64,000 nt of DNA, from sequence record LC739536.1; one strand, written 5' to 3'. Shown here one piece after another: positions 27,295 to 27,961 of the stretch. A program made the position numbers and the translations under genes. Each line of letters begins with the position of its first letter. Position 1 is the stretch's first letter. This DNA comes from Escherichia phage phiWec187. The notes below the pieces were generated by a model, which made no database searches, was not told where the DNA came from, and was given only the letters and a program-made list of their open reading frames with translations.

Positions 27295-27726
27295 ATGATG
27301 ATACTGACTATGTTAATAAACCTACTGAAGAATAAATGGGTTAGGTATTTTGTTCTTATTATAGCACTGTTTGGTGGTTTGTATGTTGGTTTAAACAAAT
27401 TACACGATGACGTGTATGCACAAGGCTACAACGCAGGTGTTGCTAAACAAGAACAAATATTACAACAAAACCAAATTAAAGCAAAACAGCAATTCGATAT
27501 CTTACAAGCAAAAGCAGATGCAGAAAGATCTAAATTGAATGAAAAAATTCATTCATTAACGAAAGAAAGAAATGATCTTCTTACACAACTGGATAAGAAG
27601 AGTAATAACATAACACAAGAGAGAATAGATTATGCGAAAACATCTTCTGGCGCTATGTCTTGTTTTAGCCCTAATGATGACGGGTTGCGCATCATCAACA
27701 ACAGCTTCCCAGCCTCTACTGATTGA
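27295..27726 (+). CDS. putative i-spanin (Rz-like)
   Basis: N-terminal transmembrane segment then coiled-coil; 3' end overlapped by lipoprotein ORF in another frame. Confidence 0.5.
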   Translation: MMILTMLINLLKNKWVRYFVLIIALFGGLYVGLNKLHDDVYAQGYNAGVAKQEQILQQNQIKAKQQFDILQAKADAERSKLNEKIHSLTKERNDLLTQLDKKSNNITQERIDYAKTSSGAMSCFSPNDDGLRIINNSFPASTD

Positions 27727-27961
27727 GCAGTGTAAAGCTGTAGCAACACAACAAATAAAAGCCCCTGATTCTGTCAGTATGGAAAAACCATCTACCCCTG
27801 TTTTATATACCCCTAATCAAATAAAGAAAGGAGTTACAAGATCAGAGGTAGTTGATAATCAAACTTTAAACAACGCTTTGTGGGAAAAAGATAGGATAAA
27901 ACTTATCAGTTTACAAAACTATATTAAAACATTACAAAGTGAAGGAATAATTTCTAATTAG
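27632..27961 (+). CDS. putative o-spanin (Rz1-like lipoprotein)
   Basis: Signal peptide with lipobox-like LMMTGC; embedded in the 3' end of the Rz-like gene. Confidence 0.55.
   Translation: MRKHLLALCLVLALMMTGCASSTTASQPLLIEQCKAVATQQIKAPDSVSMEKPSTPVLYTPNQIKKGVTRSEVVDNQTLNNALWEKDRIKLISLQNYIKTLQSEGIISN

Follow-up and report, generated by a model that had tools for sequence, protein, structure and literature searches.

What do the two overlapping open reading frames (ORFs) that lie just ahead of the large terminase gene of Escherichia phage phiWec187 encode, and where does the rest of the lysis gene set lie? In the 64,000-nucleotide stretch of sequence record LC739536.1 that was analysed (referred to below as the window), the initial annotation had noticed a membrane-anchored coiled-coil ORF whose 3' end is overlapped out of frame by a lipoprotein ORF, and had read the pair as spanins of the embedded Rz/Rz1 type. 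The reading that we propose retains the spanin identity and modifies the architecture: the pair is very probably the two-component spanin that a phi92-like E. coli myophage (Justusliebigvirus) encodes in the overlapped arrangement. This reading is adopted because the topology signals of the two products, their matches to PHROG families, the conservation of both frames in relatives and the published catalogue entry for phi92 all point to it; the spanin function is assigned from signature features and family labels. The features on which the argument is built are the following.

26566..26636, plus strand: terminator-like hairpin (26566..26584), then a sigma-70-like promoter match (26608..26636), both weak consensus matches.
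27295..27726, plus strand: candidate i-spanin gene, 143 aa, taken from the ORF listing and the raw sequence.
27337..27393, plus strand: codons of the predicted i-spanin transmembrane domain (TMD), residues 15-33, WVRYFVLIIALFGGLYVGL, with a Kyte-Doolittle 19-residue mean of 1.84.
27632..27726, plus strand: doubly coding overlap of 95 nt, frame 0 encoding the i-spanin tail and frame +1 the o-spanin N-terminus.
27632..27961, plus strand: candidate o-spanin gene, a precursor of 109 aa and a predicted mature lipoprotein of 91 aa.
27632..27688, plus strand: predicted signal peptidase II signal with the lipobox L-M-M-T-G|C, the codon of Cys19 being 27686..27688.
27970..30054, plus strand: large terminase subunit (TerL) gene, 694 aa, matching phrog_979 at 3.3e-221 and Pfam Terminase_6N at 1e-16.

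The 143-aa product has the layout of an i-spanin: a short cytoplasmic N-terminus is followed by a TMD at about residues 15-33, by a periplasmic helix that extends to about residue 119 and by a C-terminal tail. Residues 15-33 are both the best Kyte-Doolittle 19-residue segment and the sole hydrophobic segment of the protein, and a hydrophobic N-terminal segment is kept in the aligned i-spanin homologues (5/5). The single-sequence AlphaFold2 (AF2) model of the protein, whose mean pLDDT is 83.7, consists of one continuous helix from residue 14 to residue 119, with pLDDT values above 90 across residues 21-110, and ends in a non-helical tail of 24 residues that is conserved and carries an invariant cysteine, Cys123. 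The hydropathy profile and the AF2 model together give the type II topology by which i-spanins are recognised, namely an N-terminal TMD with the remainder of the protein predicted in the periplasm, and the periplasmic domain is mainly α-helical or coiled coil, as in i-spanins. The family phrog_4297, 'Rz-like spanin', matches residues 2-140 at 1.9e-40, and the PDB matches to the protein are weak and concern coiled coils only. The equivalent gene in phi92 is gp118. The sequence upstream of the i-spanin gene contains no obvious Shine-Dalgarno sequence; the phi92 record carries at the spanin locus the remark 'No RBS identified. Bad Prodigal statistics'.

The 109-aa product begins with MRKHLLALCLVLALMMTGC, which fits the PROSITE PS51257-type lipoprotein pattern, the segment CLVLALMMTGC providing the match expected of an o-spanin lipobox. 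Cys19 is the predicted lipidated residue and the residues before it the predicted signal peptide, so that the signal-peptide and lipoprotein prediction that had been put forward as a check comes out in favour of the LMMTGC lipobox, whose Gly-Cys pair is invariant in five homologues. In the entry for phAPEC8 in the supplement of Kongari 2018, a lipobox 'MMTG' is likewise accepted (PMC6139136). The mature o-spanin would be a long lipoprotein of 91 residues, five of them prolines (5/91), and its AF2 model shows the signal helix and a confident C-terminal helix at residues 70-103, the middle part being poorly modelled. In the case of E. coli, it is the residue at position +2 of the mature lipoprotein that decides on sorting by the Lol system, an Asp at this position leading to retention in the inner membrane. 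The +2 residue of the o-spanin is Ala and not Asp, hence the inner-membrane retention signal is absent, and export of the 109-aa product to the outer membrane is predicted because of this Ala; among the homologues, the +2 residue is Ser, Thr or Asn. The family phrog_1267, also labelled 'Rz-like spanin', matches residues 1-108 at 2e-20, and these full-length and significant profile matches to PHROG 4297 and 1267 place the two proteins in the phi92/phAPEC8 spanin family. The o-spanin ATG is preceded by a weak Shine-Dalgarno sequence, just a GAG about 10 nt upstream, and a partial GAG is present in all five loci compared.

The overlap was correctly described as out of frame: over its 95 nt, frame 0 encodes the C-terminal tail of the i-spanin and frame +1 the signal peptide and the first mature residues of the o-spanin. 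On the other hand, the designation 'classic embedded Rz/Rz1 architecture' has to be abandoned. With its end at 27961, the o-spanin ORF continues for 235 nt after the i-spanin stop (27726), and the pair is therefore 'overlapped' and not 'embedded' according to the definitions of Kongari 2018 (PMC6139136), the o-spanin frame not being contained within the i-spanin gene as it is in lambda. The prototype of the overlapped spanins is P2 LysB/LysC, in which the o-spanin gene begins within that of the i-spanin, in the +1 frame, and continues past the end of the latter (PMC6139136). The P2 pair has the same architecture as the window pair and no detectable sequence relationship to it: the LysB-type NCBIfam models do not match the 143-aa protein, and the NCBIfam model P2_Rz1 (NF038368) gives the o-spanin 12 bits for a cutoff of 27 (E 0.18), over the signal-peptide region only. 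The P2 spanins lie in a lysis cassette beside the holin and the endolysin. With lambda Rz/Rz1, the experimental paradigm of the membrane fusion that concludes lysis, the window pair shares its class and predicted topology, that is, a type II coiled-coil inner-membrane protein and an outer-membrane lipoprotein with periplasmic cysteines. Lambda Rz1 is, however, wholly embedded in Rz, has 40 aa in its mature form and is proline-rich, whereas the mature o-spanin predicted here has 91 aa, 5% Pro and a long C-terminal helix. Neither protein gives a hit to the Pfam models of Rz and Rz1 at E values up to 0.1, where sub-threshold coiled-coil noise alone appears; in Pfam and NCBIfam taken together, neither protein has a significant Rz, Rz1, LysB or LysC match, and the PDB sequence and profile searches return no solved relative of either.

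The phage itself belongs to a well-sampled group. Megablast of the segment 26500..30100 retrieves 129 phage records, of which the best is that of Escherichia phage muut, with 99.3% identity over the full 3.6 kb, and phi92 is 98.5% identical over the same segment; both are phi92-like myophages of the genus Justusliebigvirus, Stephanstirmvirinae. In its phi92 entry, the supplement of Kongari 2018 classifies the spanins as 'ovl' and lists an i-spanin at 55669..56101 (143 aa, coiled coil 54-115) and an o-spanin at 56006..56336 (109 aa, 91 in the mature form, 95-nt overlap), and in both group listings of the main text phi92 and phAPEC8 constitute a two-member spanin group (PMC6139136). The phi92 pair and the window pair thus have the same lengths of 143 and 109 aa, the same 95-nt +1 overlap, the same position before TerL and the same o-spanin protein, which tblastn finds 100% identical in phi92, BME3, Eryne, Nernie and others. 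The differences from the phi92-type isolates are limited to a few nucleotides, with for example A75S in the BME3 i-spanin, and none is substantial. Furthermore, the GenBank records of BME3, Eryne, Nernie and 92CQ name both genes spanins, either as 'i-spanin/o-spanin' or as two 'Rz-like spanin' entries. Because the same geometry stands in Kongari 2018 and these annotations already exist, the pair is, as judged from its sequence, an already catalogued set of phi92-type spanins and the window another isolate of a known genus.

The neighbourhood of the pair is that of the packaging genes. [quoted passage not shown] A Mu-type portal gene comes next after the large terminase gene. Upstream of the spanin locus lies a cluster of 15 tRNA genes, which matches the muut/phi92-type genomes. 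The hairpin and promoter-like sites at 26566..26636 possibly mark the start of a unit composed of gp115, gp116, the spanins and TerL, promoter matches in the spanin region being consensus matches only and no commoner than in shuffled sequence; the following terminator-like site downstream is at 30099..30120. A late co-expression of the spanins with the packaging genes would be consistent with these terminator- and promoter-like sites.

The same site is used in another group of phages. In the Vequintavirinae LL12, Hena1, GAP31 and Mydo, an i-spanin of about 132-134 aa and an o-spanin of about 94-96 aa are encoded directly upstream of TerL, and these rV5-like spanins (e.g. LL12 gp66/gp65 and Mydo gp222/gp223) therefore occupy the position of the phi92 type before the terminase gene; in the case of LL12, the spanin genes are also preceded by a tRNA cluster. 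The rV5-like genes are 'separated', with a 4-nt ATGA overlap in place of the 95 nt of the phi92 type, and their products are devoid of the i-spanin C123 and the o-spanin C34 found in the latter. Between the window proteins and the rV5-type proteins, BLASTP gives 24% identity for the i-spanin (E 1e-4) and 27% for the o-spanin (E 2e-8), and hhalign aligns the two types over their full length with a probability of 96.7% (E 4e-10) for the i-spanins and 97.9% (E 5e-13) for the o-spanins, scores that may be inflated by coiled-coil and signal-peptide composition. The o-spanins of both types have in common a specific C-terminal motif, NN...DR.KL..LQ.YI. As far as the sequences indicate, the two families listed in the 2018 catalogue appear to form a single syntenic lineage whose gene architecture has changed, which is a modest point that we did not find stated in the literature examined. 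The series leading from separated genes without Cys (rV5) to overlapped genes with one Cys per protein (phi92) could illustrate how overlapping genes arise.

The initial annotation had recognised neither endolysin nor holin beside the pair and had supposed that the cassette was split or that its partners lay elsewhere, and both suppositions are borne out. The tblastn and PHROG searches and the muut annotation are all negative for these functions in the window: the two muralytic enzymes of the relatives have no significant tblastn match in the 64 kb, the muut genes that match the window include no annotated lysis enzyme, and none of the small membrane-protein ORFs tested in the window matches a PHROG holin family. 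On the muut genome, onto which blastn places the window in reverse (window position 1 = muut 35393; 34693 = muut 1; 64000 = muut 117938), both enzymes map outside the window span, these positions being deduced from near-identical relatives and not from the genome of this phage. The first, muut gp187 (39083..39583, 166 aa), is a T4-lysozyme relative that matches phrog_430 and phrog_7 and has no hydrophobic segment; through this 99%-identical phage, the endolysin whose location had been left to the rest of the genome is placed 3.7 kb past the left end of the window, at a distance of about 32 kb from the spanins, which are encoded on the other strand. The second, muut gp051 (106155..106664, 169 aa), is an endolysin or SleB-like hydrolase according to its annotation, bears an N-terminal hydrophobic signal ending in AQA-E, and is placed about 11 kb past the right end, about 46 kb from the spanins in the other direction.

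Candidates for the holin were considered both in the window and around these two enzymes. The 'hol-like chemotaxis' protein (14933..15253, minus strand; muut gp221) was rejected because it is devoid of a hydrophobic segment, and muut gp188, which lies just upstream of the lysozyme gene, and muut gp048-050, downstream of the SleB-like gene, were rejected because they have no TMD. A 42-aa ORF at 25604..25732 matches the last third of the rIII family only, is probably a remnant and does not speak for a T4-like holin; this fragment, which resembles the C-terminus of the T4 lysis-inhibition protein rIII, sits 1.6 kb upstream of the i-spanin gene. In the paper on BME3, the holin is not found ahead of the endolysin, two muralytic enzymes are described, and a class II holin function is suggested, tentatively, for two small proteins of 61 and 81 residues (PMC12210895). 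The 81-residue candidate is the window ORF 51318..51563, whose product is a membrane protein conserved in 371 phage records; it matches phrog_1322, 'membrane protein', only, and the holin label is given to it in none of the 40 records sampled from these 371.

A scattered set of lysis genes has been reported for LL12 (PMC6658697) and for BME3 (PMC12210895); in LL12 the endolysin is remote from the spanins and the holin is not recognised (PMC6658697). The split lysis cassette is real, yet for this phage supergroup such a layout is the rule. T4, whose spanins are of the 'separated' class and belong to another family than those of phi92 in the grouping of Kongari (PMC6139136), offers a parallel. 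Like this phage, it is a large virulent myophage with scattered lysis genes (e, t, pseT.3/pseT.2), and its likely counterpart of the T4 endolysin, the muut-type lysozyme, is structurally a close relative of T4 lysozyme. In the case of T4, the genes e and t and the spanin genes are dispersed over the genome and not grouped, and the spanins are not adjacent to the terminase gene.

Could the two proteins serve another purpose than lysis? The fact that they adjoin neither endolysin nor holin, together with their lack of a significant match to the curated Rz, Rz1, LysB and LysC models, speaks for an envelope-modifying or superinfection-exclusion pair with a spanin-like topology, which we nevertheless regard as improbable. 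The model for such a function is provided by the T5 Llp and Cor lipoproteins, which block the phage receptor. To our knowledge, however, the exclusion lipoproteins described so far are encoded singly and never overlap-paired with a type II coiled-coil membrane protein, whereas the pair described here is co-conserved with a fixed +1 overlap. Its locus lies, moreover, in the presumed late packaging operon, as in the rV5-like phages, and no other spanin candidate was found in the muut RefSeq annotation. The pair also displays every feature used to recognise spanins in the survey of Kongari 2018, in which the Gram-negative phage genomes without a spanin candidate number just 91, against 528 two-component and 58 unimolecular systems (PMC6139136).

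The spanin reading is further favoured by the comparison with diverged relatives, which comprised four phages: Citrobacter phage Tr1, Klebsiella phages phi1_175008 and KP13-16, and phAPEC8. Each of them has the two ORFs intact, with a +1 overlap of 80-95 nt, and retains the TMD and the lipobox. The i-spanins of these phages are 33-52% identical in amino acids to the window protein (49% in phAPEC8), Cys123 being invariant, and the o-spanins 36-66%, with 65-66% in three of them (66% in phAPEC8) and 36% in KP13-16. Among five o-spanin homologues, 27 positions are invariant, including Gly18-Cys19 of the lipobox, Cys34 and a C-terminal motif NN.LW..DR....LQ.Y. At the DNA level, the overlap is the best-conserved segment in three of the four relatives (77-80% identity, versus 54-69% in the singly coding periplasmic parts), which is expected from constraint in two reading frames; KP13-16 departs from this pattern, with 44% in the overlap versus 47-50% elsewhere. 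Judging from these alignments, the co-conservation of both frames, of the TMD and of the lipobox makes the pair more than a chance association.

It is consequently very hard to maintain that only the 143-aa ORF is real and that the 109-aa +1 ORF is a chance open frame, even though several annotations could be read in this sense. The RefSeq records of phi92 and muut annotate the i-spanin only and omit the o-spanin; the SD2 record calls an 'o-spanin' of 60 aa, whose signal peptide is lost through a shortened start; in BME3, Tr1 and phi1_175008, the annotated o-spanin starts are at the internal MMTGC or immediately ahead of it, so that the signal peptide is missing; and the Shine-Dalgarno sequence of this gene is, as mentioned above, weak. 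These missing and shortened annotations are nevertheless attributable to the known bias of gene callers against overlapping genes, which is described by Kongari 2018 (PMC6139136), and a chance frame would have to be reconciled with the open frame and the o-spanin identities in the relatives, KP13-16 included, with the 27 invariant positions, with the full-length homology to the separately encoded rV5-like o-spanins and with the phrog_1267 match. Automated annotation is thus misleading at the spanin locus of these phages, among them several from phage-therapy studies. Beyond correct annotation, the importance of the pair is little, as it represents the standard last-step lysis device of the phi92-like group.

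That the 143-aa protein would be the missing holin or antiholin, with the topology of T4 holin T (one TMD and a periplasmic domain), is scarcely credible: it does possess a single TMD and a large periplasmic domain as T does, the phage group has no recognisable holin and the fragment resembling the T4 rIII C-terminus lies close upstream, but the protein has no PHROG holin similarity and a strong Rz-like spanin match, the model predicts for it the single long periplasmic helix typical of i-spanins, and its gene is translationally interlocked with that of a predicted outer-membrane lipoprotein.

For the two-component spanin, the mechanism that we propose is drawn from the general spanin model as outlined in the abstract of Kongari 2018 (PMC6139136) and from the analogy with lambda Rz/Rz1. 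Signal peptidase II would cleave the 109-aa precursor, whose Cys19 would become lipidated, and the resulting lipoprotein, having Ala at +2, would be sorted by the Lol system to the inner leaflet of the outer membrane. The i-spanin and the o-spanin would then bind to each other through their C-terminal regions, giving complexes that would span the periplasm through the peptidoglycan mesh and that would probably be stabilised by disulfide bonds involving C123 of the i-spanin and C34 of the o-spanin. These complexes would remain inert until the endolysin destroys the peptidoglycan; once freed, they would oligomerise and collapse, bringing about fusion of the inner membrane with the outer one and thereby eliminating the last barrier to virion release. 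In this scheme, the spanins would be produced from the late packaging operon and their partners, a cytoplasmic T4-type lysozyme and a signal-bearing SleB-like hydrolase, from elsewhere in the genome.

More tentatively, the trigger of lysis in the phi92/rV5 supergroup may be either a holin of an unrecognised type or, in a system without canonical holin, the signal-bearing SleB-like hydrolase, and the spanin genes of this syntenic lineage would also have changed from separated to overlapped; we consider this combination possible and rather doubtful. Apart from the spanins, no lysis gene is integrated into the packaging operon.

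The gp115 homologue heads the unit whose last gene encodes the large terminase, and this unit directly follows a tRNA cluster that occupies the same place in phi92 and muut. The loci concerned are:

23535..26453: cluster of 15 tRNA genes (two each for Met, Leu and Ser, and one each for Lys, Tyr, Asn, Thr, Gly, Gln, Pro, Phe and Ile), directly upstream of the spanin/terminase unit
26657..26947, + strand: gp115 homologue (phrog_3330), 96 aa from the Met at 26657
30848..31530 of the rV5-like phage LL12 (L011): spanin genes, upstream of the terminase gene

The gp115 homologue, which carries a KRGRGRP motif at its N-terminus and has an acidic C-terminus, stands where one might expect a small terminase subunit. 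If it were this subunit, the spanin genes would fall between both terminase genes. In the rV5-like phages (LL12 and the further records L012-L015), distantly homologous spanin genes hold the same position upstream of the terminase gene as in the window, but they overlap by only 4 nt, unlike the phi92-type pair, and their products lack both periplasmic cysteines conserved in the phi92 type. Within a single syntenic lineage, the arrangement of the spanin genes appears to have changed between the rV5-like and phi92-type loci.

Two muralytic enzymes, either of which may be the endolysin, are encoded in this genome type, both outside the window, and their positions were read in the close relative muut. 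These and three window proteins are the following:

muut NC_052657 39083..39583: T4-lysozyme homologue, cytoplasmic
muut NC_052657 106155..106664: SleB-like hydrolase, bearing a hydrophobic signal at its N-terminus
51318..51563, + strand: 81-aa protein amid the baseplate genes (phrog_1322, 'membrane protein')
25604..25732, + strand: 42-aa rIII-like ORF between tRNA-Gly and tRNA-Gln
55250..55591, + strand: 113-aa protein in the tail-fibre gene neighbourhood, with an N-terminal TMD and an otherwise coiled-coil-like sequence

The signal of the SleB-like hydrolase would be either a signal peptide that is cleaved off or a signal-anchor-release (SAR) domain. The 81-aa protein was tentatively proposed as a class II holin in the BME3 paper (PMC12210895). 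One clear hydrophobic segment was detected in it (residues 22-40), a weaker second stretch is seen by eye, and its C-terminus is charged. It is kept in 371 phage records, comprising rV5-, phi92- and PVP-SE1-like phages and beyond, and none of the 40 records sampled annotates it as a holin.

The 42-aa ORF matches the rIII lysis-inhibition accessory family phrog_1457 (E 2.5e-12) within the C-terminal third of the family only (positions 55-86 of 86), and its phi92 counterpart, gp113, is annotated 'putative rIII'; the ORF has the appearance of a truncated remnant, not of a complete rIII gene. The 113-aa protein is labelled 'lipoprotein' in RefSeq and PHROG (phrog_15210), a label that is ruled out: its whole sequence contains no cysteine, and it therefore cannot be a lipoprotein. 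It weakly matches the Rz-like spanin family phrog_739 (E 5e-4).

The window also differs from muut at two loci:

13234..13443: ~209 bp in place of 835 bp of muut, the replaced segment holding an HNH endonuclease gene (muut gp217)
60048..62867: 939-aa tail fibre or spike ORF, whose muut homologue has 628 aa

UAB_1, phi92 and other relatives instead have additional DNA, annotated in UAB_1 as an HNH homing endonuclease, in the tRNA-to-terminase interval. Such differences are typical of homing endonuclease genes, which are present in some relatives and absent from others. In the 939-aa ORF, the 3' part (61931..62870) has no match in muut, and a receptor-binding domain was probably exchanged there.
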